Below are positions 2,966 to 57,696 of a stretch of 64,000 bases of DNA, in pieces; within the stretch, counting starts at the first letter, position 1, and every line of letters begins with the position of its first letter. The stretch spans positions 71,102-135,101 of the forward strand of contig CBDAQZ010000001.1 of assembly GCA_965199335.1 (NCBI GenBank), read 5' to 3'. The translations under genes and the position numbers were made by a program. The DNA is from Alphaproteobacteria bacterium (lineage in GTDB: Bacteria > Pseudomonadota > Alphaproteobacteria > CALMVH01). The notes under the pieces were generated by a model that was given only the letters and a program-made list of their open reading frames with translations, did no database searches and was not told the DNA's origin.

Positions 2966-3098
2966 GGCAGTGTTCCTTAAAGGAGTTATTTTCACCTTTA
3001 TAGGAGGGTACCTACCTCTCGGCAATATACAATCATGCGAATTCTACGAAAGAGCGCACTTTTATTTCAGACACAAGTATTAAGGGACGTCCTCTAGA

Positions 3099-6000: not shown

Positions 6001-7454
6001 GATAGCGTATCCGCGTTGCCGTTGGTATCGACGGTGCCGTTGCCGGTCAGCGTTATATTGTTGCTGATCGTGGTTCCGGCGCTCGTCTGGATCGTGCCGC
6101 CCGCGCCGCCGAAGGTGATGGCGCTGCCAAGGTCGCTGGCGTTGGTGACTCCGGCCAGCGTTGCCGCGTTGTTGATCGTCAGGGCGCCGGTATAGTTGTT
6201 CGCGCCCGAAAGCGTAACCGTGCCGCCCAGCACCTGCACCGCGCCGGCGCCGCTGATAGCGCCCGAGTACGTGCCCGTACCGGTGTTCGTGAACTGAAGC
6301 GTTCCTGCATCCGCTACGCCGTTGTTGATCGGCAGGCTGGCAGTGGTGACGTTCAACGTACCGCCCGAATTGATGACCGAGCCGCCGGTATAGGTGTTCG
6401 TCCCTGTCAGGGACAATGTACCGGTGCCGCCATAAGTCACGCTGCCGGATCCCGAGATGACGCCGGCAAAGGTGCTGCTGCCCGAACCGTCCACCGTCAG
6501 GGAATTCGCGCCCAGCGCCAGCGTGCTGGTCGAATCGCCGCTCAGATTGTTCAGCGTCTGGCTGAAGCCGTTGAAGTTGAACGAGCCGTTGTTGGTGAAG
6601 CTGACACCGCTGGATTGCGCCAGCGTGTTGGCGCTCCCCGCGACCAGGGTGCCACCTGTTATGGTGGTCGAACCCGTATAGGTGACCGCCTGCGTCAGGG
6701 TCAGCGTGCCACCTGTCAGGGCGAAGTTGCTGCCCGCGCCCGAGATGACGCCGTCATAGGTCGTGGTCGACCCCGCGCCGCCGACCGACAGGTTGGAGCC
6801 GGTGCCGCCCAGCATGATCTTTTCCGAGCCGCCGCTGGTATCCGAGATCGAGCCGATGATGTTCGTACCGGTCGTCTGGCTTAAATCCAGCGTGCCGCCG
6901 GCGCTGCTGTAGGCGCCCATGATCGTGGCTGCATTGCCGTTGACGATCAGCGAGCTGTTGCCGATCGAAACGCTGCCGCTGAAAGTCAGGTTGCCGTTCG
7001 TGGTATTGAAGCTTTCACCACCGGTCGAGGTGTTGGTCAGCGTTCCGATGGTCAGCGTCGACCCCGTGCCGGTCAGATCGAACGTCTGGTTGGCCGTGGA
7101 CGAATTCGTCAGCGTACCGATATTGAACGAAACCGCGTTGCCTTCGAGGAAGGTGTATGAGACGCCGCCGTTGAACAGCAGGGTGTTGAGCGGATTGCTG
7201 GTATTGGCAAAGGTGATCGCCGACGTCTTGGTGACCGCCGCGGAGTTTCCGAACACCGCAGTATCCGCCGCGCCCGGGGCGTTGCCGGTATCGTAGTTGC
7301 TGCCGAGGTTGAAATTGCCGTTGCTGGTAGTCGAACCCGCCCCATCATACGTATCTGTCGCCGCCATGGCTTCCATGGGTGATCCAACGGCGACAAGCGT
7401 TAATGCAGTGCCCGCGAGAAGGATGGTCTGGAGGCGGCGGCTGAAACGGGGCAT
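3099..7454 (-). CDS. Type Va autotransporter (passenger with PATR-type G/T/S-rich beta-helix repeats plus C-terminal beta-barrel translocator)
   Basis: 1451 aa. Signal peptide, then dozens of GTGTLTLSGANTYTGGT-like repeats. The C-terminal roughly 280 aa is a beta-domain ending ...VKYNW; a terminal aromatic is typical of autotransporter barrels. Confidence 0.9.
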   Translation of the reverse strand: MPRFSRRLQTILLAGTALTLVAVGSPMEAMAATDTYDGAGSTTSNGNFNLGSNYDTGNAPGAADTAVFGNSAAVTKTSAITFANTSNPLNTLLFNGGVSYTFLEGNAVSFNIGTLTNSSTANQTFDLTGTGSTLTIGTLTNTSTGGESFNTTNGNLTFSGSVSIGNSSLIVNGNAATIMGAYSSAGGTLDLSQTTGTNIIGSISDTSGGSEKIMLGGTGSNLSVGGAGSTTTYDGVISGAGSNFALTGGTLTLTQAVTYTGSTTITGGTLVAGSANTLAQSSGVSFTNNGSFNFNGFSQTLNNLSGDSTSTLALGANSLTVDGSGSSTFAGVISGSGSVTYGGTGTLSLTGTNTYTGGSVINSGGTLNVTTASLPINNGVADAGTLQFTNTGTGTYSGAISGAGAVQVLGGTVTLSGANNYTGALTINNAATLAGVTNASDLGSAITFGGAGGTIQTSAGTTISNNITLTGNGTVDTNGNADTLSGVVSGAGRLILSSSTGTGSVSVSGANTFTGGAFINSNTTATYANVAALGTGTVNVNGPAAVVNLNGFSPTINGLNGNNAGSVLAGASTLTLAGSGAYTYAGTITGTGALIKNGTGTQALSGATGYTGAVTINAGTINAGNNASLGSGIVTFNGGALGASAAGITIGNAATLAAGGGTLTSLGNSYTYSGALTGTGALNTAGTHTVTLTNAGNAYSGGTNANGGTLALGVDNAIAAGTLAVGNAGTVALGTFNQTVTALTGSGAVTTTGGALTVASGTFSGVYSGAGNLIKNTAGTLTLSGANTYSGVTNVNAGTLALGASNAAGPAGLAIASGATFAMNGFDQEASALSGSGAITSTGGTLTADAGTFTGTVSSTGALIKSTAGSLTLNNASSFASTTVSAGTLQVGDTPGSAAMLTSPVTVASGGTLMGYGTIVGALTNNGTVNPGTAIGALTVNGNYTQAQNSVLTIRVTPTSNSVLAVNGTAALNGTLSIVNDPGSYALGKQYTVLTANNGITGQFATATATSTGTFFTETYLPNAVELTVTSPEAIFAAPPPGATSTPNTSNVDGAIKSILPGVAPSSAFAEGLVNIFGPSLADAPRALVAGALGELRADIGTIDLANLTSFQNFIVERMNECQGLTTTRMAMTGLPGTFDVPVGRTDESMFGPCSGSNPTRADQASLWVHGYGVLGETGGESGFSEFQYRTGGIVGGIDTKVAPGVLIGAAVAYEHTDFNLSGDNGENNIDTYRATLYGSAKLNPIPMVFDAAVGYAFNDYHDSDYLPLASGTGYQQTSRHDGDELSAEAGLSHAFSVPQGLTSGKLTLVPRIGVEYDNIHQNRYATSGSPVAGLDFDTNGTNLNALRSLAGIRADLTLMTKNGTALTPEIRAAYLHDFMATNVALSESFTGAPAAGFRISGVHPGRDAALLGAGMTAAFNPNLSATLSYDADIREHELDHTVQAGVKYNW

Positions 7455-8564: not shown

Positions 8565-8637
8565 CCGCTCATTCCTGTATTGTCGCCGCCTGCTGCCCGT
8601 GGCACACCCATGGGGCAGCATCACAGGGACATGGCGC

Positions 8638-10065
<1,428 letters not shown>

Positions 10066-10108
10066 AAATGCTATGGTATAACTACATATCTAAATAAGAG
10101 AATTCATC

Positions 10109-10837
10109 ATGGCACAAACATCTCGGCCAGATTTAATCTTGTTCGACATCGGACAGGTAATTGTGCCATATGATGATCATAAGTTGATTGAAAATATCGC
10201 TGCTCGTTGTAGCGATCCCGAAGCTTCCACTGAGATCAAATCATATTTAACGACCGACTGGAAAGCTTTACAGACAGGGGCAATGGCAGACGAACGATTA
10301 CATCAGAAGTTCGTAATCGGTCTTGGTTTCGATGGTAGTTTTAAGGACTTTCAGCAAGTCTGGTGTGCTCACACAGCACGCGATCCTGCGATGGAAACCC
10401 TTGTACGTGAAGTCGAGAAGACGACGGCAACAGCTTTGTTATCCAATGCAACAAAAATCCACATGCAACATTTTACCTCCAATTATGAGTTGATTGGGCG
10501 GATGAATTCTAATGGCAATGCTCATTTTTCCTGTTTGATGGGAGCCGTAAAACCTGACAGAGAAGCGTTCGAAATTACTCTTGATAGTGAAAGCCGGCGA
10601 TTGGGACGCCATATAAGTCCGGAAAAGACGCTTTTCATCGATGACATTTCGCAGATGACAGAGGGCGCAAAAGCAGTTGGAATGGATACAATTGTTTTCA
10701 CTGGAATTGCAGCTTTGATACCCGCTCTCGTGTCTCGCTGTGTACCAATCGGAGTGGCTGGCGTTAATCTACCAACCACCGCTTGGGCAGGAGCACGTGC
10801 CGGTATTATTGGTCATGATTCTACCAAGCCAATCTGA
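10109..10837 (+). CDS. HAD-superfamily hydrolase (variant motif I FDIGQV; motifs SNAT / K / LFIDD present)
   Basis: 242 aa. HAD motifs II-IV are recognisable. GC is about 42%, against about 63% in the flanks. Confidence 0.7.
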   Translation: MAQTSRPDLILFDIGQVIVPYDDHKLIENIAARCSDPEASTEIKSYLTTDWKALQTGAMADERLHQKFVIGLGFDGSFKDFQQVWCAHTARDPAMETLVREVEKTTATALLSNATKIHMQHFTSNYELIGRMNSNGNAHFSCLMGAVKPDREAFEITLDSESRRLGRHISPEKTLFIDDISQMTEGAKAVGMDTIVFTGIAALIPALVSRCVPIGVAGVNLPTTAWAGARAGIIGHDSTKPI

Positions 10838-10887
10838 CTCCATGACACGCGCAGTTTAAACCAGTATAAGGTCTGCAAAACAGCGTC

Positions 10888-11391
10888 ATGGAGACCGGCA
10901 TGATAAGAAAAATCTATAACAGGATAGTGAACCTGTCTCCTGCGGTCGTGCTGGTTATCGGCCTCGCTTTCATGCTTTCGGGTTTCTTTTTCCAGACCGA
11001 TCTTGGCTACGACGATGCGCCGATTGCAACCTCCTACTCCTTGTCTCTCGGGGCAAACTGCGAGAGCGACTACAAGCAATGCCATGTCAGGCCGCGGGTT
11101 GTAGTGGGCTATCGTATCGAAACCACCCGCAACGAGGTCGTCGCCTTCATGCCCGGCATGGACGGGCTGATGGACAAATACAACGAATGCACCATCTGGA
11201 GCGCATCCGACTGGCAGTGCGAGGCCGGCCGTATCTCGATGCATGACGGGCTTATCACTCACAATGAGTTCGAGACCGACCACGATATCTATTATGTCCC
11301 GAAGATCGCCTGGAAAATGGCGAAGCTGCACATCCTGCCGCTGAATTCCGTGCGTCATTCGCCCCCGCCGAAATCGGTTCACGGCACCTAG
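10888..11391 (+). CDS. Hypothetical membrane-anchored protein (N-terminal TM helix, four Cys in the C-domain)
   Basis: 167 aa, in the same low-GC island. The antisense ORF 10813-11727 has junk composition. Confidence 0.5.
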   Translation: METGMIRKIYNRIVNLSPAVVLVIGLAFMLSGFFFQTDLGYDDAPIATSYSLSLGANCESDYKQCHVRPRVVVGYRIETTRNEVVAFMPGMDGLMDKYNECTIWSASDWQCEAGRISMHDGLITHNEFETDHDIYYVPKIAWKMAKLHILPLNSVRHSPPPKSVHGT

Positions 11392-11443
11392 CCGGAACCA
11401 AATTGCTTCACCGGTCTTTCTCTTCTCGAACCAGGAGGAAGAC

Positions 11444-11659
11444 ATGGCGGAAAAGACCGTAAAAGCCGGCGACAAAGTCAGCTGGAGCTCTTCGCAAGGC
11501 GAGGTGAAGGGTACGGTAAAGAAGAAACTGACCTCACCCATCAAGATCAAGGGGCATGCGGTCAAGGCATCGCCGGATAATCCAGAATACCTCGTCCAGT
11601 CCGACAAGACCGGCGCAAAGGCTGCACACAAGCCGGGAGAGCTGAAAAAAACCAAGTAA
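11444..11659 (+). CDS. DUF2945-family small protein (hypervirulence-associated TUDOR-like fold)
   Basis: 71 aa. KAGDKVSWSSSQGEVKGTV...KGHAVKASPDNPEYLVQSDKTGAKAAHKPGELKK matches the DUF2945 consensus (KxGDxVxW...G.V.G....KGH...AS.D.P.Y...SDKT...AAHK). A strong AGGAGGAAG ribosome-binding site lies 5 nt upstream. Confidence 0.65.
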   Translation: MAEKTVKAGDKVSWSSSQGEVKGTVKKKLTSPIKIKGHAVKASPDNPEYLVQSDKTGAKAAHKPGELKKTK

Positions 11660-11896
11660 GAGGCAGATACATTCTGTAAGTATTCAGATAAAATTTTACT
11701 CAAAACATAAATATAGATGGAAATCACTTAACTAAGTATTGAGTATATATATTTTAGGTTGTCTTGCGCGGCTGAATCAGATTCCTCGTTTGGGGCCCAA
11801 GTGGCAAAAATGCACTTAATGTGTATTCCAGGCAACGAATCGCGGTACTGCCGATTTTGCTTTACAGCCCGATTGTGACTGTGCCAGAACCCCGCC

Positions 11897-12340
11897 ATGA
11901 AATTGAAACTGTTGCGCCTGGCCTGTGCCTTCATCGCCGCATCGTTCGCAACCCTTGTCAGCGTCCCGGCCCGTGCCGATACGCCCGACAGCAAGAAAGT
12001 CGAAACGGGCATCGCCAGCTACTATGGCGATGACTGGCAGGACCGCCGCACCGCCAACGGCGAGCGGTTCAACCCCGAGGCTTTTACGGCGGCACACCGC
12101 AATCTGCCGCTTGGCGCCTGGGTCAAGGTGACAAACCTGATCAACGGGCGTAGCATCAACGTCCGAATAAACGATCGCAACGCGCCATCGCATACCCGAA
12201 TCATCGATCTGTCAAAGGCCGCCGCCGATGCCGTTGGCATGCTGCAGGCCGGCTTGGCGAAAGTGAAGATCGAGCGCATACTGCCGCCGGGCCATCGAAT
12301 CGCGATGCACGAGCCGCCGCACAAGCCCGTTTACAATTAG
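11897..12340 (+). CDS. rlpA: Septal ring lytic transglycosylase RlpA-family protein (DPBB domain)
   Basis: Signal peptide, then GIASYYG...TANGE.F...TAAH..LPLG..V.VTNL.NGRS..VRINDRNAP; this is the RlpA double-psi beta-barrel signature. Confidence 0.85.
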   Translation: MKLKLLRLACAFIAASFATLVSVPARADTPDSKKVETGIASYYGDDWQDRRTANGERFNPEAFTAAHRNLPLGAWVKVTNLINGRSINVRINDRNAPSHTRIIDLSKAAADAVGMLQAGLAKVKIERILPPGHRIAMHEPPHKPVYN

Positions 12341-32618: not shown

Positions 32619-33440
32619 ATGGCCATGTTGTTACCAGACCGGGCCATCGTCGCCGTTTCGGGCGAGGATCGCATAGCATTCCTGCAGGGACTCATCACCA
32701 ACGACGTCGACAGCCTGCGCGACGGCGAGGTCGCCTATTCCTGCCTGCTGACCGCCCAGGGCCGGTTTCTGCACGATTTCTTCGTCATTGCCGCCGGCGA
32801 CCGCTTGCTGTTCGACTGCGAAGCCGGCCGTCGCGACGACCTGATTCGCCGCTTGAAACAGTTCCGTCTGCGGGCGAAGGTGGATGTGACGGACGAAATG
32901 GCAGCCTATTCCGTCCATTGTCATTCCCGCGAAGGCGGGAATCCAGGATTGGATACGGGATATGCCTACGCCGATCCACGGCATGTCGACCTTGGCTACC
33001 GATCTATCGTTCCGGCTGGTTTAATCCTTGATTCACGCTTTCGCGGGAATGACGGGGAGTGGGAAGGCTACGAACGTATCCGCATTACTCTCGGCGTTCC
33101 CGACGGCAGCCGCGACATGGTGCCGGAGCAGGCCTTGCTGCTGGAAAACAACATCGACCGCCTGAACGGCATTTCCTTCACCAAGGGGTGCTATGTCGGG
33201 CAGGAAGTCACGGCGCGCATGCACCACAGGGGCGGGGTGAAGAAACGCCTGACGCCGGTGCGTATGGAAGCCGCCGCGCCACCGGTGGGAATGCCGGTTA
33301 CGATAGATGGCACCGAAATCGGCGAGATGCGATCGAGTTGCGGCGATCTGGGACTGGCATTGTTGCGGGCCCGTGCGGAAGAGGGCCAGATACATTGTGG
33401 TGATGCAAAGCTGTATGTGCTGAACCACACATCCACCTGA
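32619..33440 (+). CDS. ygfZ: tRNA-modifying folate-binding protein YgfZ (CAF17 family) carrying a 45-codon in-frame repeat insertion
   Basis: The KGCYVGQE signature (ISFTKGCYVGQEVTARMHHRG) is present. The low-complexity segment ...CHSREGGNPGLD...RFRGNDGE... is encoded by the palindromic element at 32919-33053. Confidence 0.85.
   Translation: MAMLLPDRAIVAVSGEDRIAFLQGLITNDVDSLRDGEVAYSCLLTAQGRFLHDFFVIAAGDRLLFDCEAGRRDDLIRRLKQFRLRAKVDVTDEMAAYSVHCHSREGGNPGLDTGYAYADPRHVDLGYRSIVPAGLILDSRFRGNDGEWEGYERIRITLGVPDGSRDMVPEQALLLENNIDRLNGISFTKGCYVGQEVTARMHHRGGVKKRLTPVRMEAAAPPVGMPVTIDGTEIGEMRSSCGDLGLALLRARAEEGQIHCGDAKLYVLNHTST
32919..33053. repeat. MITE/REP-like element (135 bp) with terminal inverted copies of a GTCATTCC-hairpin-GGAATCC unit, inserted in-frame in ygfZ
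   Basis: The left unit is tGTCATTCCCGCGAAGGCGGGAATCCAGG (32919-32948). The right unit is the reverse complement GTCATTCCCGCGAAAGCGTGAATC (33030-33053). 135 bp equals 45 codons. The antisense frame reads ...IPAFAGMT..., the known junk-peptide signature of this repeat class. Confidence 0.55.
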
Positions 33441-33442
33441 TT

Positions 33443-33527
33443 GTCATTCCGGTGCGTAGCACCGGAATCCATACCGCTGATAAAGGGAGGCACGACCGCA
33501 TGGATTCCGTGCTGCGCACGGAATGAC
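33443..33527. repeat. Second copy of the same palindromic element family (two hairpin units in inverted orientation) in the ygfZ/glyS convergent spacer
   Basis: GTCATTCCGGTGCgtaGCACCGGAATCCAT ... ATGGATTCCGTGCtgcGCACGGAATGAC. It starts 2 nt after the ygfZ stop and ends 7 nt before the glyS stop. Confidence 0.6.
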
Positions 33528-33536
33528 GATTTTTTT
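33505..33536 (+). terminator. Candidate intrinsic terminator for ygfZ formed by the repeat hairpin plus a T7 run
   Basis: TTCCGTGC-tgc-GCACGGAA is followed by TGACGATTTTTTT. The spacer to the T-run is slightly long. Confidence 0.4.
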
Positions 33537-35619
33537 ATCCTTCGATCTTCGAGAAATCCGCGATGGCGTCGAACGTTCCGGTGATCGCTGCCAACAGCTT
33601 CAGGCGATTCTGACGCAGCTTGGGATCGGGATCGTTGACCAAGACCTTGTCGAAGAAAGCGTCGAGGGGCAGTCGCAGCTTTGCCAGGACGTCCATGCTC
33701 TCTTCGTATTTGCCTGCCTGAGTTAGTTCACGGGCTTTGGAGAGGCTAGAATCCAAAATAAGGCCTAATTCTTTTTCCGCAGATTCAACGAGTAGCCGAG
33801 TTTCAAAATCGAGCCCATAATCTTGGTCTTTCTTATTCTCCTTTTCCAATATGCTGCTGGCTCGTCGGTAAGCGGTAAGCAAGGGGCCGCCATTCGCACT
33901 GAGAAATTTCTGTAAAGCCTGAGCCCTCTGAACGATAAGTAGCAAATTGTCCCCCGAATTTGCCCCTAGTAGAGCCTCAAGCAGATCATGACCAATACCT
34001 TCATCCCTTAACTGAACTTTCAAACGGTCGGCAATGAAAGCAAAAACTTTTTCCGCTACCGTATCTGGAACTAAGTTGGGAATAAGTTGGGAATAATAAG
34101 ATAGCGCAGCGCTGCAAACTGAAACCAGAGAAAGCTCTAGGCTATTCTCGCGAATCAGCCGGATAATTCCAAGTGCGGCACGACGCAGGGCGTAGGGGTC
34201 GCGGCTGCCGGTGGGCAGCTCTTCGATGGCGAAGAAACCGACCAGCGTATCCAGCTTGTCGGCAAGGGCGACGGCAACGCTGACCGGCTTGGTCGGGCAG
34301 GCATCGCCCGGGCCGGCGGGGCGGTAATGATCGGCGATCGCGTCGGCCACGTCGTCGCCGAGGCCTTCCTTGCGGGCGTAATATCCGCCCATGATGCCTT
34401 GCAACTCGGGGAATTCGCCAACCATGCCCGAGACAAGGTCGGCCTTGGCCAGCAGGCCTCCCTTGCGTGCCAGGTCAGCATCGCCATTTGTGTGGCTGCT
34501 GATGCGTTCTGCAAGATTGGCGATACGATCCGCTTTCTGGCGCACCGTGCCCAACTTCGCATGGAACGTTACCTTCTCCAGCTTCGGCAAACGCTGTTCC
34601 AGCGTCGTCTTCAAATCCTGGTCCCAGAAGAACCGGGCATCGGCAAGGCGGGCGCGCAATACGCGTTCGTTGCCGGCGACGATGGTTGCGCCGCCGTCGT
34701 TGCCGGGTACATTGGCGACGATGGCGAATTTCGCCGCTGACGTGCCGTCCCTGTTCGCCAGCGTGAAATATTTCTGGTTCTCGCGCATCGTCACCTGCCG
34801 CACTTCCTTTGGCAGGTCCATGAATTCCTGGTCGATCGAACCGAGCAGCACCGTCGGCCATTCGACCAGGCCGGTGACTTCCTCCAGCAGGCCGTTATCG
34901 GGCACCAGCTCCAGCCCCGCCTTTGTCGCCGCCGCATGCAGCTGGCGTGCGATTTCCGCCTTGCGCTCGTCGCGGTCCAGGATGACGTATCGCGTCCTCA
35001 GCTTGGCGAAATAATCTTCGAAATCATGGACGTGAAACGGCTCCGGCGCCAGGAAGCGGTGGCCGTGGCTGACATTGTTGCCGGTATAGGTAAGCGTCGG
35101 CGGAAATTCCAGCTTCGCCGTGATCGGCTGGCCGCCGAAGACCATCATGATGTTGTGCAGCGGGCGCACCCAGCTCAGCGGGTGCAGGCTCCAGCGCATC
35201 GATTTGGGCCAGGGGAAGTGCGTGATGATCTGCGCGACGATCTCGGGCAGCAGGTCCGCAGTGGGCTGGCCGAATTTCTTGGTGACGGCGTACCAGAACA
35301 CACCCTTGCCGCTATCGCGCTGCTCGGCCTGTTCCAGGCTGTCGATGCCCGCGCCTTTCAGGAAGCCCTGGATCGCGGCATCGGGCGATCCGACCTTCGG
35401 GCCCTTGCGTTCGTCCAGGCTGTCGGGCTGTTGCACTGCCAGGTCGCGCACGACCAGTGCCAGCCGGCGCGGGGTGACGTGGGTTTCGCAGGCGCTGAAA
35501 TCCAGCTTCGCCTCCTGCAGCCGTTCGCAGAACAGGCGCCTCAGGTCTTCCGCCGCCTGTTTTTGCATGCGGGCGGGGATTTCTTCGCCGAACAGTTCCA
35601 GCAGGAATTCGGAGTGCAT
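33535..35619 (-). CDS. glyS: Glycyl-tRNA synthetase beta subunit
   Basis: 694-aa full-length GlyS. The start makes an ATGA overlap with the glyQ stop. The 3' 450 bp (about 33700-34150) has markedly lower GC. Confidence 0.95.
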   Translation of the reverse strand: MHSEFLLELFGEEIPARMQKQAAEDLRRLFCERLQEAKLDFSACETHVTPRRLALVVRDLAVQQPDSLDERKGPKVGSPDAAIQGFLKGAGIDSLEQAEQRDSGKGVFWYAVTKKFGQPTADLLPEIVAQIITHFPWPKSMRWSLHPLSWVRPLHNIMMVFGGQPITAKLEFPPTLTYTGNNVSHGHRFLAPEPFHVHDFEDYFAKLRTRYVILDRDERKAEIARQLHAAATKAGLELVPDNGLLEEVTGLVEWPTVLLGSIDQEFMDLPKEVRQVTMRENQKYFTLANRDGTSAAKFAIVANVPGNDGGATIVAGNERVLRARLADARFFWDQDLKTTLEQRLPKLEKVTFHAKLGTVRQKADRIANLAERISSHTNGDADLARKGGLLAKADLVSGMVGEFPELQGIMGGYYARKEGLGDDVADAIADHYRPAGPGDACPTKPVSVAVALADKLDTLVGFFAIEELPTGSRDPYALRRAALGIIRLIRENSLELSLVSVCSAALSYYSQLIPNLVPDTVAEKVFAFIADRLKVQLRDEGIGHDLLEALLGANSGDNLLLIVQRAQALQKFLSANGGPLLTAYRRASSILEKENKKDQDYGLDFETRLLVESAEKELGLILDSSLSKARELTQAGKYEESMDVLAKLRLPLDAFFDKVLVNDPDPKLRQNRLKLLAAITGTFDAIADFSKIEG

Positions 35620-36470
35620 CAGACGCTTCCCTCAAGCCAGACTTCGCAGCAGCGTTTCGCCAAAGCACGCACGCGGCCGATATAGGCGGCGCGCTCGACC
35701 ACGCTGATGACGCCGCGGGCGTTCAGCAGATTGAACAGGTGGCTGGCCTTGATCGCCTGCTCGTAGGCGGGCAATGCCAGCTTGCGATCCAGCAGGGCCG
35801 CGCATTCGATCTCGGCGTCGACGAAATGGCTCAGCAGCTTTTCGACATTGGCATATTCGAAGGCATAGGCCGAGGCCTCGACCTCGTTGCGCTTGAACAC
35901 TTCGCCGTATTTGACGCCGGCGGAATTGTAATCCAGCTCGTACACGTTCTCGACGCCCTGGATGTACATCGCCATGCGCTCGATGCCGTAGGTCATTTCG
36001 TAGGCGACGGGGTAACAGTCGATGCCGCCCATCTGCTGGAAATAGGTGAACTGGCCGATCTCCATGCCATCGCACCACACTTCCCAGCCCAGGCCCCAGG
36101 CGCCCAGCGTCGGGCCTTCCCAATCGTCCTCGACGAAGCGGATGTCGTGCAGCAACGGGTCGAGCCCCAGAGCATACAGGCTTTCGAGGTAGATCTCCTG
36201 CGCGTTGGCGGGCGAGGGCTTCATGATCGCCTGGAACTGGTGATGCTGGATCAGCCGGTTCGGGTTCTCGCCATAGCGCCCGTCGGTCGGACGGCGCGAG
36301 GGCTGGACATAGGCCGCGTTCCACGGCTTCTCGCCCACCGCGCGCAGGGTCGTCGCGGGATGGAACGTACCCGCCCCCATCTCGACATCGTAGGGCTGGA
36401 GGATGACGCAACCCTGCCCGGACCAATAGGTCTGGAGGGTTAGGATGATGTCCTGGAAACTGAGTGCCAT
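35619..36470 (-). CDS. glyQ: Glycyl-tRNA synthetase alpha subunit
   Basis: [38 protein letters not shown] is the canonical GlyQ N-terminus. Confidence 0.95.
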
Positions 36471-36696: not shown

Positions 36697-37400
36697 CAGG
36701 CCCAGAGGTCTATGGCGGCACGGCCACGCAGGATCGCGTCGGCTTCCTCGGTATATGTGCCGTCATTCCGGTGCAGCACAAGCCCTGCTGCCAGACGCAG
36801 GGCCGTTTTACGGCCCTTGATGCCGCCGACGATCACGCGATTCGCATCCTCGCCCAGCCTGCGCCACAGGGGAAACACCACCAGCGCGCCCAGCCGGGGT
36901 TGGAACTCCGCCAGCAACTCGTCCAGGCGGTCGGCGCGATGGACGAAGATCACCGATCCGTTGTCGGACACGCGGCGACAGGCGAACTCGACCCAGTCGG
37001 GCAGCTTTGCCTTGCCTTCGTGGTTGGCGATCGACGGTTCGCCCGTGCCGTAGCCTTCCCGCAGATAAGGTGGGTTACAGATGACATGGTTGAATCGCCT
37101 CTGTTTCAACTCTGCCGGGGGCGCCATGATGCAGCCTTCGAAAATCGTCAGTCGCCTGCCAACATCGTTGGCGTCGGCATTGGTGCGCGCCAGTTCCGCC
37201 ATATGCGGCTGGATTTCTATGCCGACGGCCGTGCTACCGGTACGTTCCATTACGCAGAGCGCGGCCGTACCTACGCCGCAGCCGGCGTCGAGTACGGTGT
37301 CGTCAGGTTGCGCAGGGCAGGCGGCGGCCAGAATGAGAGGGTCGATGGCCGCCCGGTAGCCGTCCTCGGGCTGCGTCAGCGCGATACGGCGATCCAGCAT
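36696..37400 (-). CDS. tRNA (adenine-N6)-methyltransferase-like SAM-dependent methyltransferase (YfiC/TrmN6 family, NPPY motif)
   Basis: VLDAGCGVGTAAL SAM-binding motif and NPPY. 234 aa. Confidence 0.8.
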   Translation of the reverse strand: MLDRRIALTQPEDGYRAAIDPLILAAACPAQPDDTVLDAGCGVGTAALCVMERTGSTAVGIEIQPHMAELARTNADANDVGRRLTIFEGCIMAPPAELKQRRFNHVICNPPYLREGYGTGEPSIANHEGKAKLPDWVEFACRRVSDNGSVIFVHRADRLDELLAEFQPRLGALVVFPLWRRLGEDANRVIVGGIKGRKTALRLAAGLVLHRNDGTYTEEADAILRGRAAIDLWA

Positions 37401-37405
37401 AAATC

Positions 37406-37822
37406 CTAGAAGTCGGGATTTTGGTGGCCTTGCGGACCCGCTGAGTTTCGTTTGCCCGAAACCGCGACCAAATGGCTTATGTGAGTGGAGAGTTCTGAAT
37501 ACACGTCCAGATTTGGAGCTGCTGGCGAAATCACGGTATGTTTTGATTTCAATTGGCTAACGATCTGTTGCGAGGGAGTGGTACCCAGGTTCAACGCGTC
37601 GTACATTGTAAAATCGACCATCGGTCCGCTGGGGTCGAAGAAAAGCTGCCGTGATCCGACATGCTCGAGCATCGGGCTGCCGTTTTCCAGAGCCTTGCTC
37701 CAGATAGTGGCTGCCTCCTCATCGCTTACGGGTTCAGTCGAGCCTGAACAATCTATGGCGTTGTTCAGCATCGCCGATATCAAAGCCCAGGTCGGTACCC
37801 CGGAAACATCTGTTGCAGACAT
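37406..37822 (-). CDS. Hypothetical protein (lower-GC gene)
   Basis: 138 aa. An AAGAGG ribosome-binding site lies 6 nt upstream. It sits in operon position ahead of the methyltransferase. The plus-strand alternative 37485-37847 starts with GTG and has no ribosome-binding site. Confidence 0.45.
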   Translation of the reverse strand: MSATDVSGVPTWALISAMLNNAIDCSGSTEPVSDEEAATIWSKALENGSPMLEHVGSRQLFFDPSGPMVDFTMYDALNLGTTPSQQIVSQLKSKHTVISPAAPNLDVYSELSTHISHLVAVSGKRNSAGPQGHQNPDF

Positions 37823-37930
37823 GGTTCAGCCTCTTTTTAATGACTGATTAATACATGGGCGTTCGTGCATAGTCCAGAAAATTGTAAGCGGCGCCAACTC
37901 ACTTGAATACATAGTTTTGCCCTGTATGTT

Positions 37931-38959
37931 TTGCTTATGACCGCTGCCGACAATGTCGCCCGTACACACGCCAAGCCTGCCAGCGTCAATGCGCTGGACG
38001 AGCTTACCGCGCTGGTAGCCGACGACCTTGCCCGCGTCAACGCATTGATCCTGCAGCACATGCAATCGCCCGTGGCGCTGATTCCCCAGCTTGCCGGCTA
38101 TATTCTTTCCGCCGGCGGAAAGCGCCTGCGCCCGGTGCTTACCCTCGCTTCGGCGCGTTTGTGCGGCTACGAGGGCGATCGTCATCCCGGCCTGGCTGCC
38201 GCCGTGGAACTGATCCACACCGCGACCCTGCTGCATGACGATGTCGTGGACGAAAGCGATCGCCGCCGCGGCCGCGCCTCGGCCAATGCCGTGTTCGGCA
38301 ACGAGGCGAGCGTGCTGGTCGGCGACTTCCTGTTCAGCCGCGCTTTCGAGCTGATGACCAGCGATGGCTCCATCGAGGTGTTGCGCATCCTGTCCAACGC
38401 CTCTGCCGTGATTGCGGAGGGCGAGGTGCTGCAGCTGGCCACCGCCAACGACCTCGCCACGACCCAGGAAGCTTATTTCAAGGTAATCGAATCGAAGACC
38501 GCCGCCCTGTTCGCGGCCGCCTGCGAAGTCGGGGCCATCGCCGCCGGCACGCCCGATTACGCGTCCGGCCTCAGCGTTTACGGGCGCAAGCTTGGCCTTG
38601 CCTTCCAGATCGTCGATGACGTGCTGGACTACGTTGCCAGCGAGGCCCGGCTGGGCAAGGCGATCGGTGACGATTTCCGCGACGGCAAGGTGACCTTGCC
38701 CGTGATCCTGGCCTATCAGCGCGGCAGCGAGGGCGAACGCGACTTCTGGCGCCGCTCGATCGAGGATCAGGAGCTTGACGACGACGCGCTGGATTACGCC
38801 ATCGCCCTGCTGCGCCAGCACCGGGCGCTGGACGAAAGTTTCGACATCGCGCGCGGCTTCGTGGTCGAGGCAAAGGCGGCGCTTCTGCCACTGCCGACCG
38901 GGCCTTTCCGCTCGGCCATGACCCGCGTCGCCGATTTCTGCGTCGATCGCGATTTTTAA
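37931..38959 (+). CDS. ispB: All-trans polyprenyl (octaprenyl/decaprenyl) diphosphate synthase
   Basis: FARM LLHDDVVDESDRRRG and SARM QIVDDVLD motifs are present. The antisense 388-aa ORF is junk. Confidence 0.9.
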   Translation: MLMTAADNVARTHAKPASVNALDELTALVADDLARVNALILQHMQSPVALIPQLAGYILSAGGKRLRPVLTLASARLCGYEGDRHPGLAAAVELIHTATLLHDDVVDESDRRRGRASANAVFGNEASVLVGDFLFSRAFELMTSDGSIEVLRILSNASAVIAEGEVLQLATANDLATTQEAYFKVIESKTAALFAAACEVGAIAAGTPDYASGLSVYGRKLGLAFQIVDDVLDYVASEARLGKAIGDDFRDGKVTLPVILAYQRGSEGERDFWRRSIEDQELDDDALDYAIALLRQHRALDESFDIARGFVVEAKAALLPLPTGPFRSAMTRVADFCVDRDF

Positions 38960-39022: not shown

Positions 39023-39099
39023 CGGGATGTAGCTTAGCCTGGTAAAGCGCCTGCTTCGGGAGCAGGAGAGCGGAGGTTCGAATCCTCTCATCCCGACCA
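39023..39099 (+). tRNA. tRNA-Pro (anticodon CGG)
   Basis: CGGGATG acceptor stem pairing with CATCCCG (the C1:G72 pair is characteristic of tRNA-Pro). Anticodon loop TTCGGGA. T-arm GGTTCGAATCC. The CCA is encoded. Confidence 0.85.
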
Positions 39100-55417: not shown

Positions 55418-56350
55418 ATCGGACACGATCATAGTCATCATCATCTGCCGGCCAATTCCCGTACGCTCTGGCTGGCGCTCGGCCTGACCCTGGCATTCTG
55501 CGCCGGGGAGGCCGTGGTCGGGCTGGTCACAAACTCGTTGGCCCTGATCTCCGATGCCGGTCACAATCTGGGCGATGCGCTGGCGCTGGGCTTGTCCGGC
55601 TATGCCGCCTGGGTAGGGGGCAAGCCCGCGACCTCAAAGCATACCTATGGCTACCACCGCGCCGCAATCCTGGCGCCCCTGTTCAACGCCGCGACGCTGG
55701 TCGTCACCGCGCTTGTGATCGGCGCGGCGGCGGTCGGGCGACTGTTCGCGCCACAGCCGGTCGAGGCCGGGCCCATGATCTGGGTCGCGGCGGCGGCGCT
55801 GGTTCTGAACACGGTCATCGCCCTGTTCCTGGCGGGCGGTGTCAAACACAGCCTGAACGACCGGTCGGTGTTCGTGCACATGGTCGGCGATGCGTTGTCC
55901 AGCCTTGTCGTGATCGGGGGCGGCATCGTGATCCGCTATACCGGCTGGCAGGCGGTCGACCCGCTGGTATCGCTGGCCATCGCCGCCTTCATCCTGGTCT
56001 CCGCCAGCGGCATTCTGCGCCAGACCATCGGCATCCTGATGGAGAACGCGCCGCCCGGCCTTGACGTGGCGGCGCTGGTCAGGACCATCCGCGCGGTAGA
56101 GCCGGTGCAGACGGTGCACCACCTGCATGTCTGGTCGATCCGCGACGGCATGACGGCTTTAAGCTGCCATGTGACGCTGCCCGAGGCCTGCACACTGCGC
56201 GACTGCTCGGCCACGATCGCGGCGATCAACGCCCGGCTGCACGACGAGTTCGGCATCCATCACGCCACGATCCAGGCCGAGCTGGAAGGCCAGTGCGAAC
56301 CGGCGCACGAGGACGATGTATTCTGCGTCATGGAGACGCATGCGCACTAG
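55418..56350 (+). CDS. Cation diffusion facilitator (CzcD/ZitB-type) transporter; start codon ambiguous (ATC at 55418 behind a Shine-Dalgarno, or GTG at 55514 which would truncate TM1)
   Basis: The in-frame upstream sequence encodes GHDHSHHH-LPANSRTLWLALGLTLAF (the classic CDF His-rich N-terminus plus TM1) but has no ATG/GTG/TTG. GGGAG lies 8 nt before the ATC at 55418-55420. Confidence 0.8.
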   Translation: MGHDHSHHHLPANSRTLWLALGLTLAFCAGEAVVGLVTNSLALISDAGHNLGDALALGLSGYAAWVGGKPATSKHTYGYHRAAILAPLFNAATLVVTALVIGAAAVGRLFAPQPVEAGPMIWVAAAALVLNTVIALFLAGGVKHSLNDRSVFVHMVGDALSSLVVIGGGIVIRYTGWQAVDPLVSLAIAAFILVSASGILRQTIGILMENAPPGLDVAALVRTIRAVEPVQTVHHLHVWSIRDGMTALSCHVTLPEACTLRDCSATIAAINARLHDEFGIHHATIQAELEGQCEPAHEDDVFCVMETHAH

Positions 56351-56532
56351 GGCGAAAATGACGGAACGACCCCATGTACAGTAGGTAAGTCGTTGATATA
56401 GCTATCTGTTTTTAGCGGGCTTGCGAACTCTGCCTATTTTTAAAACAATTTATATTTATCAAATACATAGAGATAAATCTTTAATTTTTGCATCAGCTTG
56501 AAATGGTCCTGGAACAATTCAGGATGAGGCAG

Positions 56533-57696
56533 TTAAAACTCCACTATTCCTTCCGGCGTGTCGATCAGCAGGCGATTGGGGCCGTCCGATTTTTCCGTGC
56601 GCCCATAGATGCGGGCCGCGATGTCGAAAGCGCCCGCGGCGTCGATGATGCTTTGTGCGCGGTCCTCGTCGCAGACGATTTCCATGCGAAAGCCCATGTT
56701 GAAGCTGCGCAGCATCTCGCGGTACGGCAGGGCACGGGTTTCGCGCAGGAAGCGGAACAGGGGGGCTTCGGGGAACAGGCCGTCTTTTATATACCGTATG
56801 CCGCTGCCGAAATTCAGGCACTTGGTCTGGCCGCCGCCGGTGTTGTGGAAGATGGCGGAGATGCCGTCCAGCCCCCGGTCCAGGATTGCCTTGATCACCG
56901 GCGCATAGGTGCGGGTAGGGGACAGCAGCGCCTCGCCGACGGTCATCCCCAGGCCCGGCGCGAGGTCGGACAGGGCGTAGTCGCCGACATAGGCCAGGTC
57001 GTGGATCTCGGGCGCATAGGCTTCCGGGCTGCCGTCGCGGTAGGTCCGGTTCAATACCTCGTGCCGGATCGCGGTGATGCCGTTGCTGCCGATGCCGGAA
57101 TTGGGCCGGTCCTCGTAACTGGCCTGTCCGTCGGAGGCGAGCCCGACGATCACCTGGCCCGCGCGCACTTTGGCGGCATCGATGAAATCGGCGCGGCGCA
57201 TGCGGACGGTCAGCGTGGAATCGACGATCACCGTGCGCACCAGGTCGCCGACATCGGCAGTCTCCCCGCCCGCGATGGTAATTTCCACGCCGTGTTCGCC
57301 CAGCATGGCGACGACCTTGCTGTAGCCGGCGACAATCTGGGTCACAACCTCGCCCGGGATCAGCATCTTGTTGCGGCCGATCGTGTTCGACATCACGAAC
57401 GGCCCTGTGGCGCCGACGCACAGCAGGTCGTCGGTATTCATCACCAGCGAATCCTGCGCGATGCCCTGGAAGATCGCGGCGTCGCCATGCTGCTTGTAAT
57501 GCAGATAAGCCAGGATGGACTTGGTCCCAGCGCCGTCGGCATGGCTCAGCAGGCAATGCGCGACCGAACCGCCCAGTATGTCGGGCATGGCGTGGCAGAA
57601 CGCCCCGGGAAACAGCCCCTTGTCCAACTGCGCCACGGCGGCTTTGACATCGGGCTTGTCCGGCGAAACGCCGCGGGCTTCGTAGGTGACGGTCAT
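56533..57696 (-). CDS. PurM-superfamily (AIR synthase-related) protein of unknown function
   Basis: 387 aa. An N-terminal HADGAGTKS motif is analogous to PurM DGVGTK. It is not PurM/PurL/ThiL/HypE/SelD by N- or C-terminal features. Its start makes an ATGA overlap with the gntK stop. Confidence 0.65.
   Translation of the reverse strand: MTVTYEARGVSPDKPDVKAAVAQLDKGLFPGAFCHAMPDILGGSVAHCLLSHADGAGTKSILAYLHYKQHGDAAIFQGIAQDSLVMNTDDLLCVGATGPFVMSNTIGRNKMLIPGEVVTQIVAGYSKVVAMLGEHGVEITIAGGETADVGDLVRTVIVDSTLTVRMRRADFIDAAKVRAGQVIVGLASDGQASYEDRPNSGIGSNGITAIRHEVLNRTYRDGSPEAYAPEIHDLAYVGDYALSDLAPGLGMTVGEALLSPTRTYAPVIKAILDRGLDGISAIFHNTGGGQTKCLNFGSGIRYIKDGLFPEAPLFRFLRETRALPYREMLRSFNMGFRMEIVCDEDRAQSIIDAAGAFDIAARIYGRTEKSDGPNRLLIDTPEGIVEF

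Follow-up and report, generated by a model that had tools for sequence, protein, structure and literature searches.

Mosaic Genes in Bacteria

The mosaic pbp2x, pbp2b and penA genes of Streptococcus and Neisseria are products of interspecies transformation, and their recombined blocks measure between a few hundred bp and a few kb. In these PBP mosaics the donor and recipient DNAs differ by ~5-25% and are similar in GC, the donors are known, and selection is exerted by beta-lactams. Horizontal transfer of aminoacyl-tRNA synthetase (aaRS) genes, such as the mupirocin-resistant ileS2, takes the form of whole-gene replacement or addition, often from distant lineages. Within-gene transfer is common as well, since 19.6% of the 1,462 orthologue sets analysed by Chan, Beiko, Darling and Ragan (2009, PMC2817436) had observable breakpoints inside open reading frames (ORFs).

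The segment considered here is a low-GC patch in glyS, the gene for the beta subunit of glycine--tRNA ligase (GlyRS), within a 64-kb stretch of alphaproteobacterial DNA, the whole of which is referred to below as the window. As in the PBP mosaics, a block from a related species would have entered an essential gene by crossing over in conserved stretches, the outcome being a functional chimera. The glyS patch is unlike them in its saturated synonymous sites and its GC3 gap of 0.4, and the known donors and selective agent of the PBP cases have no counterpart here. With aaRS transfers it shares the apparent presence of foreign DNA in an essential synthetase gene, but only ~22% of glyS is affected and the source would belong to the same clade. 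Like described within-gene lateral transfers (PMC2817436; Boc and Makarenkov 2011, PMC3241670), it appears to be an in-register replacement of part of a gene, with breakpoints inside the ORF that ignore domain borders; unlike those cases, the argument is built on composition and codon usage in place of a phylogenetic breakpoint whose donor has been identified. Unless the contig is an assembly chimera, glyS is most likely a mosaic gene of an ordinary type.

The glyS Locus

The two subunits of GlyRS are encoded by adjacent genes:

33535-35619, minus strand: glyS (glycine--tRNA ligase beta subunit), intact and in its native position, 694 aa
35619-36470, minus strand: glyQ (alpha subunit), with a 1-base overlap with the glyS start; GC3 0.85, uniform host composition

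The glyQ gene was identified by Pfam (tRNA-synt_2e, E=3.9e-141), and glyS lies directly downstream in the same operon. The gene order methyltransferase-glyQ-glyS-CAF17-GT9-GT2-Wzy_C is common to the window, the sister gene L001 and the related L003, and because this synteny is kept the glyS locus can be considered native. The window GlyS has a full-length domain set (Pfam tRNA_synt_2f at residues 5-551, E=6e-187; DALR_1 at residues 581-684, E=5.5e-9), and chain C of PDB 7yse, the E. coli GlyRS beta subunit, aligns colinearly over its full length with residues 4-692 (E=2.6e-125). The reading frame is unbroken, and the alignment is colinear with relatives through the last residue, in agreement with an earlier note on this DNA, which had stated that a continuous GlyS C-terminus is encoded. 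Both domains of a beta subunit are thus present, as is the operon position next to glyQ, and the encoded protein is an ordinary GlyRS beta subunit, revealing neither a new mechanism nor a new function.

A Low-GC Patch inside glyS

Toward its 3' end the gene changes composition twice:

33715-34176, minus strand: low-GC patch, codons 482-635, 462 bp; GC 0.457, GC3 0.40 (0.403), 40% host-rare codons
33538-33714, minus strand: host-like C-terminal tail, codons 636-694, ~59 codons; GC3 0.76

The GC3 of glyS is 0.81 in the N-terminal part, drops to 0.40 in the patch and returns to 0.76 in the tail. A maximum-likelihood segmentation with two boundaries places the GC segment at 33695-34174 (LLR 23), where GC is 0.454 as compared with 0.630 outside it in glyS. 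In 7,666 windows of 154 codons from 20 other genes of the window, GC3 averages 0.819 +/- 0.043 and does not fall below 0.688, so that the patch stands at z = -9.6. The low-GC patch that the earlier note had reported is therefore present on recount, the GC profile of the gene not being uniform, and the compositional deviation is genuine and lies well outside what chance would give. The note had placed it in the 3' end of the gene, in its C-terminal portion; since the last ~59 codons are host-like again, the patch is internal.

The step is synonymous in character, as GC at codon positions 1 and 2 is almost unchanged across the patch. Host-rare codons account for 40% of the patch, 7.5% of the N-terminal part and a fraction of 0.17 of the tail. 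The patch has 17 CTA, TTA or ATT codons, whereas the remaining 540 codons of glyS include none: leucine is encoded by CTA seven times and by TTA four times, and isoleucine by ATT six times, versus 21 of 21 ATC codons outside the patch. For valine, GTT is used in 7/8 cases in the patch and in 2/35 elsewhere in the gene. In its choice of codons the patch resembles a different genome, one of much lower GC. The third-base spectrum of the patch is T.36, A.24, G.21, C.19. The amino-acid composition is only mildly AT-shifted (GARP 0.24, FYMINK 0.20), which speaks against replacement; as the shift is small and inside the range of homologues, amino-acid composition was dropped as proof of a low-GC donor.

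The domains of E. coli GlyRS beta in question are HD (341-540) and ABD (541-end) (PMC8464048). By alignment with the E. coli protein, the patch spans the last ~58 HD residues and about the first 95 ABD residues. The location in the anticodon-binding portion given in the earlier note consequently holds for ~95 residues, but the HD is entered as well and the ABD is not covered as a unit. All invariant columns in the patch are kept (N492, F528, R532, K534, V535, L537, A549, L559, R565, A568, L569, L580, L581, R586, A587, I590, E615 and L618). With these residues and its colinearity with relatives, the patch is a genuine stretch of GlyS that purifying selection has maintained.

No second copy of the patch was found, nor are there notable repeats at its flanks, and a repeat or mobile-element origin was rejected for this reason. 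The other conserved genes of the window, including gatB and glyQ, are all without such a patch, the minimum 100-codon GC3 in genes of host pattern being at least 0.67. A single other piece of compositionally foreign DNA occurs in the window, an orphan gene at 10109-10837, and because its third-base spectrum (T.33, A.26, G.20, C.20) resembles that of the patch, low-GC DNA seems to have entered the genome elsewhere too.

Comparison with Homologues

The comparison set of 77 alphaproteobacterial glyS genes includes the sister gene L001. The change in GC3 in the homologous segment (delta GC3) is -0.41 in the window (z = -6.3), against -0.04 +/- 0.059 in the set, where the minimum is -0.18. In the sister gene L001, on a contig whose GC (63%) equals that of the window, the segment has a GC3 of 0.78 and a delta GC3 of -0.04. 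The low-GC segment is thus missing from L001 and from the 76 other genes, a comparison with relatives that the earlier note had proposed, and the patch appears from these genes not to be a lineage-wide feature, with the caveat that the nearest available relative has only 79% amino-acid identity in the N-terminal part. One gene, L018, seemed to offer a second case (-0.33) and was rejected as an ORF-extraction artefact, a frameshifted glyS of uniform GC in a long-read MAG.

In the tree of the N-terminal part, the window groups with L001/P0001 at 97% bootstrap. In the patch tree, the pair of window and P0001 has 42%, and the window is basal in a four-member clade with P0001-P0003 (75%). The trees of the N-terminal part and of the patch, comparable to the separate phylogenies advised in the earlier note, differ in their support for the closest pair, but both segments remain in the same four-member clade, and because of this the source of the patch would not be a distant lineage. 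The loss of support would fit a source that is different but related. As a counterpoint to replacement, the phylogenetic incongruence is weak, with the clade unchanged, and the protein divergence of the patch equals the expectation for vertical descent in this region. The ratio of identity in the patch to identity in the N-terminal part is 0.75 for the window versus P0001 and 0.74 for P0001 versus P0002. Placement of a donor by synonymous sites is uninformative, since all pairs are saturated and the observed identity is about that expected from composition.

These comparisons bear on the possibility that the segment is native and that its synonymous sites have drifted, or have been selected, toward A/T in situ. 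Such a shift could stem from a local easing of the pressure that maintains codon choice or GC, from selection for slow translation where the HD meets the ABD, or from an embedded AT-rich DNA or RNA element. Protein divergence and clade membership match vertical descent, as such an origin predicts, the amino-acid composition is barely shifted, and a mild GC3 dip is general in homologues (mean -0.04) and deeper in L002 (-0.16) and L003 (-0.14), which belong to the clade. The dip in the window, however, lies 6 SD beyond the 77 homologues and is not shared by L001, and codons absent from the other 540 become the commonest ones within the patch. No consistent strand asymmetry of the sort that a deamination-type mutational cluster would leave is present. 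Neither an Rfam match at E<=1 nor a promoter-like site was found in or around the patch, and terminator-like sites occur there as often as in shuffled sequence at most (one is in the intergenic spacer and a weak one lies at 34125-34140 inside the patch); an embedded RNA, promoter or terminator was accordingly rejected as the cause of the AT-richness. The relaxed or altered codon selection that the earlier note had offered as an alternative is not supported, for related reasons: this variable region is under normal purifying selection, with its invariant residues kept and its divergence as expected, and the edges of the patch are too sharp for local drift. An origin in situ is therefore distinctly unlikely.

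Edges of the Patch and Probable Homologous Replacement

Each edge of the patch is close to a conserved block:

34177-34224, minus strand: conserved block EELPTGSRDPYALRRA, codons 466-481, with invariant columns, adjoining the patch upstream in the gene sense; likely 5' crossover site
33619-33678, minus strand: conserved block LRLPLDAFFDKVLVNDPDPK with invariant columns, codons 648-667, on the downstream side of the patch; likely 3' crossover zone

Nucleotide identity among relatives peaks in the gene at codons 450-479 (0.83-0.87), and exact runs of 20-23 nt are common to clade members at codons 470-479. The earliest host-rare codons are CGT CGT at codons 479-480, which would put the 5' breakpoint at ~34174-34185; by per-codon usage this edge is sharp, the transition taking place within a few codons. 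At the other end, exact runs of 19-23 nt are common to clade members at codons 659-667, and because scattered rare codons reach about codon 654 the 3' breakpoint is fuzzy and may lie anywhere in 33655-33715. The putative crossover sites thus appear to abut the most conserved DNA blocks of the gene and not the domain borders.

Several features of a mosaic gene are found together in glyS: a deviant segment that is internal, an ORF that is in register and continuous with all invariant residues kept, and a segment that is different in the sister gene L001. The patch has probably arisen by short-tract homologous replacement from an unsampled relative of lower GC, with breakpoints in conserved blocks. 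A tract of ~460-530 bp would have been exchanged in register for the homologous segment of another organism, by double crossover or gene conversion, with ends in the conserved blocks PTGSRDPYALRRAALG upstream and LPLDAFFDKVLVNDPDP downstream of the variable region. The donor would be within or next to the recipient's GlyS clade, an alphaproteobacterial group of Rhodospirillales-like type that has been little sampled and is represented here by P0001-P0003 (related ENA contigs are ERZ25067493:ctg171630, ERZ25073694:ctg89649 and ERZ22147080:ctg67268), and because the GC3 of the patch is about 0.4 its genome would be much lower in GC, roughly 45-50%. The product would be a functional chimeric GlyRS beta subunit with a donor-derived HD/anticodon-binding junction.

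At saturated synonymous divergence, exchange through RecA should be very inefficient. Recipient-like and donor-like synonymous sites would be saturated here, which is a further counterpoint to replacement. A more specific version, and one that we consider unlikely, is a real mosaic formed across this saturated divergence (GC3 0.40 versus 0.82) by way of two ~20-nt anchors or a homing element that has since been lost. It would have been retained as an advantageous swap of the HD/anticodon-binding junction, one that could, for instance, have let the enzyme evade an inhibitor or toxin targeting the tRNA-binding module.

The same edges could also have been produced in the computer. In an assembly or consensus chimera, ~0.5 kb of a co-occurring, related glyS of lower GC would have been threaded between the conserved blocks, and the mosaic would exist in no cell. 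Every close relative is a metagenome assembly, the window GlyS is absent from the collections searched, and the switch points are at conserved blocks, where assemblers and PCR chimeras also switch; the patch source that we infer, a relative of the same clade, could moreover co-occur in the sample. A chimera would be like other inter-genome chimeric MAG contigs in showing a compositional step in a conserved gene at conserved blocks. Typical MAG chimeras, however, switch and then stay, whereas the patch reverts to host composition after ~0.5 kb and is unique in 64 kb, with no comparable patch in the other conserved genes. An in-and-out switch within 0.5 kb requires two exact shared k-mers, but clade members of similar GC share just 19-23 nt, and a genome of GC3 0.4 would share fewer exact runs. 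The nucleotide identity of the patch to the homologous segment of relatives is ~55-60%, and the usual assemblers do not merge paths of such identity as bubbles. The frame and all invariant residues, finally, are perfectly kept across both junctions. On balance, a chimeric assembly is rather unlikely, and homologous replacement is preferred.

The Tandem Repeat and the Variable Loop

Inside the patch, a short repeat falls in a loop of GlyS that varies in length:

34067-34096: tandem repeat, period 11 bp, AAGTTGGGAAT x2 plus a partial copy, in the length-variable GlyS loop

TRF calls the repeat at 34067-34096 with a period of 11 and 2.6 copies, and the copies of AAGTTGGGAAT are at 34073-34083 and 34084-34094. 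The earlier note had described a tandem duplication of a 12-mer encoding a short peptide. The repeat is there, and the peptide (...SQLIPNLVP...) was read correctly, but the 12-mer AAGTTGGGAATA, although present twice, overlaps itself by one base, and with a period of 11 the repeat is therefore not an in-frame duplication. Such a duplication was also rejected because the removal of one copy destroys the frame and the other frames match no relatives. The loop is 8 aa longer in the window GlyS than in P0001-P0003 by alignment; as loop length is homoplastic among relatives, this indel was not used as a marker.

The geometry of a short, in-register tract centred on a length-variable loop with an 11-bp tandem repeat is reminiscent of a co-conversion scar, left by a homing element, either an intein or an endonuclease-bearing group I/II intron, that came from a lower-GC relative, carried adjoining donor exon sequence along and was later lost precisely. 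This resemblance is one of geometry only. No remnant of an element is present, the protein is colinear save for the 8-aa loop difference, Pfam gives just the two GlyS domains and Rfam no intron match, and no intein or intron is seen in the homologous segment among 14 aligned GlyS proteins. Such a scar is highly improbable.

Search for a Donor

The highest identity to the patch anywhere is that of P0001, at 60% in a MAFFT alignment and 56% by BLASTP. Against a word-indexed collection of 5.8 billion proteins the patch protein gave a single match (43%), and an exhaustive HMMER search of 1.84 billion representatives gave a best match of 52% to the patch and no donor. Among GTDB species representatives, a single-protein query found no relative and a clade-alignment query reached 47% at best. 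In JGI metagenomes the best match to the patch was 44%; plasmids gave at most 39% (tblastn), and phages no match to the patch (blastn). A query of flank, patch and flank, directed at fragmentary close relatives, reached 60%, and an exact look-up of the window GlyS sequence returned no record. In the collections searched there is accordingly no identifiable donor closer to the patch than to its flanks, nor a match to another donor lineage such as the earlier note had envisaged. Its mosaic reading is nevertheless retained as the best explanation of the synonymous step, with the qualification that no donor was found and that the patch protein is, at the available resolution, not from a different lineage.

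Significance

An inter-genome chimera would leave the same signature as the patch, and the case is therefore useful for the quality control of MAGs. If it is real, it would be a clean case in which only part of an essential, single-copy gene of translation was exchanged, between partners ~15 GC points apart, with breakpoints in conserved motifs and not at domain borders. An exchange of this kind would matter where aaRS genes serve as phylogenetic markers, and for estimates of how far homologous recombination reaches across divergence.

The glyS gene and its low-GC patch

The GlyS protein of the window carries the Pfam domains tRNA_synt_2f (residues 5-551, E=6e-187) and DALR_1 (residues 581-684), and the solved E. 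coli GlyRS beta structure (7yse_C) matches it end to end (E=2.6e-125). The gene order, methyltransferase, glyQ, glyS, a convergent CAF17/YgfZ-like gene, GT9, GT2 and Wzy_C, is the same in L001 and L003, contigs of the closest relatives. Given the domains, the end-to-end alignment and the conserved gene order, glyS is an intact gene that occupies its native locus.

33535-35619, minus strand: glyS, 694 aa, GlyRS beta subunit
35619-36470: glyQ, overlapping the glyS start by one base
33715-34176: the patch, codons 482-635 of glyS, 462 bp, GC 0.457, delimited by codon usage

Within glyS, the 200-bp sliding profile is not uniform, with GC of ~0.62-0.68 giving way to 0.42-0.48 from about 33700 to 34200, and a two-boundary likelihood fit places the low-GC segment at 33695-34174 (GC 0.454 vs 0.630 in the remaining glyS, LLR 23). 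Third codon positions carry almost all of this change: in 25-codon windows, GC3 drops from ~0.8 to 0.3-0.5, and GC1+2 stays near 0.45-0.55 throughout. The limits of the patch were set by a per-codon score against the synonymous usage of 20 other window genes, and its GC3 of 0.403 compares with 0.819 +/- 0.043 (minimum 0.688, z = -9.6) across 7,666 equally long windows of these genes, bearing out the low-GC patch described in an earlier note. Codons rare in the host (<10% usage within their synonymous family) make up 40% of the patch vs 7.5% of codons 1-481. For leucine, the patch uses CTA 7, CTT 7, TTG 5, TTA 4, CTC 4 and CTG 3 times; elsewhere in glyS, CTG accounts for 46/61, and CTA and TTA for none. 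Isoleucine is ATT in 6/9 cases vs ATC in 21/21 elsewhere in the gene, and valine is GTT in 7/8 vs 2/35.

The earlier note placed the patch at the 3' end of glyS. It is internal, because the final ~59 codons (33538-33714) return to a host-like GC3 of 0.76. On the E. coli GlyRS beta domain map (HD 341-540, ABD 541-end; PMC8464048), it covers the last ~58 HD residues and roughly the first 95 residues of the anticodon-binding domain, and does not correspond to a domain unit.

A tandem repeat had also been noticed at 34073-34096 as a duplicated 12-mer. The repeat is real, with AAGTTGGGAAT at 34073-34083 and again at 34084-94; its unit is not a 12-mer, as TRF reports a period of 11 bp and 2.6 copies at 34067-34096. 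This period rules out a simple in-frame duplication and, not being a multiple of three, means that an origin by slippage, if that occurred, needs a compensating indel. The repeat sits in a coding loop that is 8 aa longer than in P0001-P0003, the closest GlyS proteins, and the length of this loop is homoplastic among relatives.

Uniqueness of the patch

No similar patch was found in the other window genes of host GC pattern, none of which falls below a GC3 of 0.67 over any 100 codons. Among the coding sequences of the 64 kb, just one orphan gene, at 10109-10837, is comparably low, and it is so over its whole length (GC3 0.40); other short low-GC runs are mostly intergenic, such as that around tRNA-Pro (39023-39099).

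For the homologues, glyS was taken from 78 related loci and aligned, and the GC3 of the N-part (glyS upstream of the patch) was subtracted from that of the patch segment. This difference is -0.04 +/- 0.059 (minimum -0.18) in 77 glyS genes and -0.41 in the window (z = -6.3). In L001, the closest relative (contig GC 63%) and the window's sister in the N-part (97% bootstrap), the segment homologous to the patch has a GC3 of 0.78. The low-GC segment is hence no lineage-wide feature; such a feature would have spoken against a recent mosaic. L002 and L003, clade members of lower GC (57%), show mild dips (-0.16 and -0.14). This part of glyS thus has a slight general leaning to lower GC3, but one far smaller than the drop in the window. 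A second candidate dip, in L018, was rejected: this glyS of an Inquilinaceae MAG (CBDBVB010000021.1, 1530-3621) is split into ORFs 1530-3254 and 3007-3621, has uniform GC, and imitated a GC3 dip through what is probably a frameshift error of long-read assembly.

These comparisons bear on the idea that the patch arose in situ, by drift or selection. The mild dips in L002 and L003 would agree with it, as would the unchanged protein phylogeny of the patch and its nearly unshifted amino-acid composition. Nevertheless, it appears improbable, as the deviation reaches 6 SD, the edges are sharp, the sister gene in L001 has no dip, no RNA or promoter element is present, terminator-like matches do not exceed their level in shuffled sequence, and the strands show no asymmetry of the kind expected from a deamination cluster.

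Relatives and possible source of the patch

The window's lineage is poorly sampled. Its own GlyS and genome are absent from all collections searched, and the best GlyS matches are three metagenomic proteins, P0001-P0003 (72-74% identity), followed by further proteins and then Azospirillaceae- and Dongiaceae-type ones at ~55%. Identity to P0001, P0002 and P0003 is 0.60, 0.56 and 0.54 in the patch and 0.79, 0.78 and 0.78 in the N-part; the ratios (0.69-0.75) are the same as among these three themselves (0.72-0.77). The patch contains clade-specific motifs, such as RLKVQLRDEGIGHD, and keeps all columns invariant across 15 GlyS sequences, which contradicts the relaxed selection proposed earlier. 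By these comparisons, the patch is not foreign to its clade at the protein level.

Neighbour-joining trees (100 bootstraps) were built separately for the two parts. The N-part tree groups the window with P0001 at 97% and with P0001-P0003 at 100%. The patch tree retains the four-member clade at 75%, with the window basal, yet groups the window with P0001 in just 42% of replicates; any incongruence between the two parts is weak. From the identity ratios and the trees, the source of the patch would, at this resolution, lie within this clade or right next to it. The different donor lineage that the earlier note envisaged is thus not seen, and its mosaic reading is likely to hold, given the step in composition and the sister gene lacking it.

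Searches for a donor were all negative, with one match, at 43%, in a word-indexed database of 5.8 billion proteins; a best of 52% in an exhaustive search of 1.84 billion representatives; 47% in GTDB species representatives; 44% in JGI metagenomes; at most 39% in plasmids; and no match in phages. A query that kept the patch between its two flanks, aimed at fragments of close relatives, gave 60% at best. Synonymous sites do not place the donor either, being saturated in comparisons among all clade members.

Proposed breakpoints and mechanism

The 5' edge of the patch (gene sense) directly follows the most conserved stretch of glyS, PTGSRDPYALRRAALGIIRL; codons 450-479 have the highest nucleotide identity to relatives in the gene (0.83-0.87), and the earliest host-rare codons are CGT CGT at 479-480. 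The 3' edge is less sharp and fades out on the approach to LPLDAFFDKVLVNDPDP and inside it. Exact runs of 19-23 nt are common to diverged clade members at each of the two blocks, about the minimal identity segment for starting homologous exchange. A variable region exchanged between two conserved anchors is what is classically seen in mosaic genes formed by double crossover or gene conversion, once DNA of a related organism has been taken up.

Assemblers also switch at conserved blocks and the relatives are all MAGs, which would be consistent with a chimera made during assembly. We consider this unlikely: switching in and out within 0.5 kb requires two shared k-mers between genomes differing by 0.4 in GC3, nothing similar occurs in other conserved genes of the 64 kb, and the reading frame is unbroken, with every invariant residue kept. 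The geometry could likewise be that of a co-conversion scar left by a lost homing element, but no remnant of an element was found, making this a very remote prospect.

The most likely origin of the patch, favoured with some reserve, is homologous replacement from the DNA of a related organism. Such DNA would have been taken up and the variable region swapped between the two conserved anchors, via double crossover or gene conversion. With a GC3 of ~0.4 and the third-base spectrum of the patch (T3>A3>G3~C3), the donor genome may have had roughly 45-50% GC. The orphan gene at 10109-10837 has a nearly identical spectrum (T.33, A.26, G.20, C.20), a weak hint that the host has acquired DNA of this compositional class elsewhere.

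Other features of the window

10109-10837, plus strand: orphan ORF, 242 aa, GC3 0.40, no Pfam match
10813-11727, minus strand: ORF, 304 aa, no Pfam match
37406-37822, minus strand: ORF, 138 aa, GC3 0.59, no Pfam match

The first two ORFs lie in a low-GC islet (9954-11957, GC 0.47-0.48) directly after a gatB-like gene (8599-10065). The islet probably consists of accessory DNA that was acquired horizontally and belongs to the compositional class of the glyS patch. The third lies in a moderately low-GC stretch (37384-38000, ~0.50-0.52) that separates the methyltransferase gene from the next one. Of the short low-GC runs, the sharpest, 56291-56631 (minimum 0.33 in 150 bp), covers the 3' end of ORF 55514-56350, a spacer and the beginning of the ORFs that follow (from 56488). 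A very long minus-strand ORF (3099-7454, 1451 aa) has GC1 0.54, GC2 0.58 and GC3 0.82, unlike other window genes (GC1 ~0.65, GC2 ~0.45), and its product may be repetitive or of low complexity. The CAF17-like gene and glyS converge on a 94-bp spacer (33440-33530) that bears nested inverted repeats (ATTGTCATTCCG/CGGAATGACGAT, 67 nt apart, ATTCCGGTGC/GCACCGGAAT and CGGAATCCAT/ATGGATTCCG), with a terminator-like hairpin and, behind it, a T run (hairpin at 33504-33524); the spacer is likely a bidirectional terminator or REP-like element, and the window holds no second copy.

Relation to known mosaic genes

Mosaic pbp and penA genes are textbook examples of mosaic genes, and whole-gene HGT of aminoacyl-tRNA synthetases is common. 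Sub-genic lateral transfer is already well documented: Chan et al. found recombination breakpoints within ORFs in 19.6% of 1,462 orthologue sets (PMC2817436), and dedicated detection methods for partial HGT exist (PMC3241670). The window glyS resembles such cases in its composition, its colinearity and the absence of the patch from the sister gene, and differs from them in lacking an identified donor. A mosaic is likely and a distant donor unlikely, and the idea of relaxed selection is rejected. The window glyS is probably another mosaic gene of an already known type, with one unusual feature, the very large compositional gap between the tract and its host.
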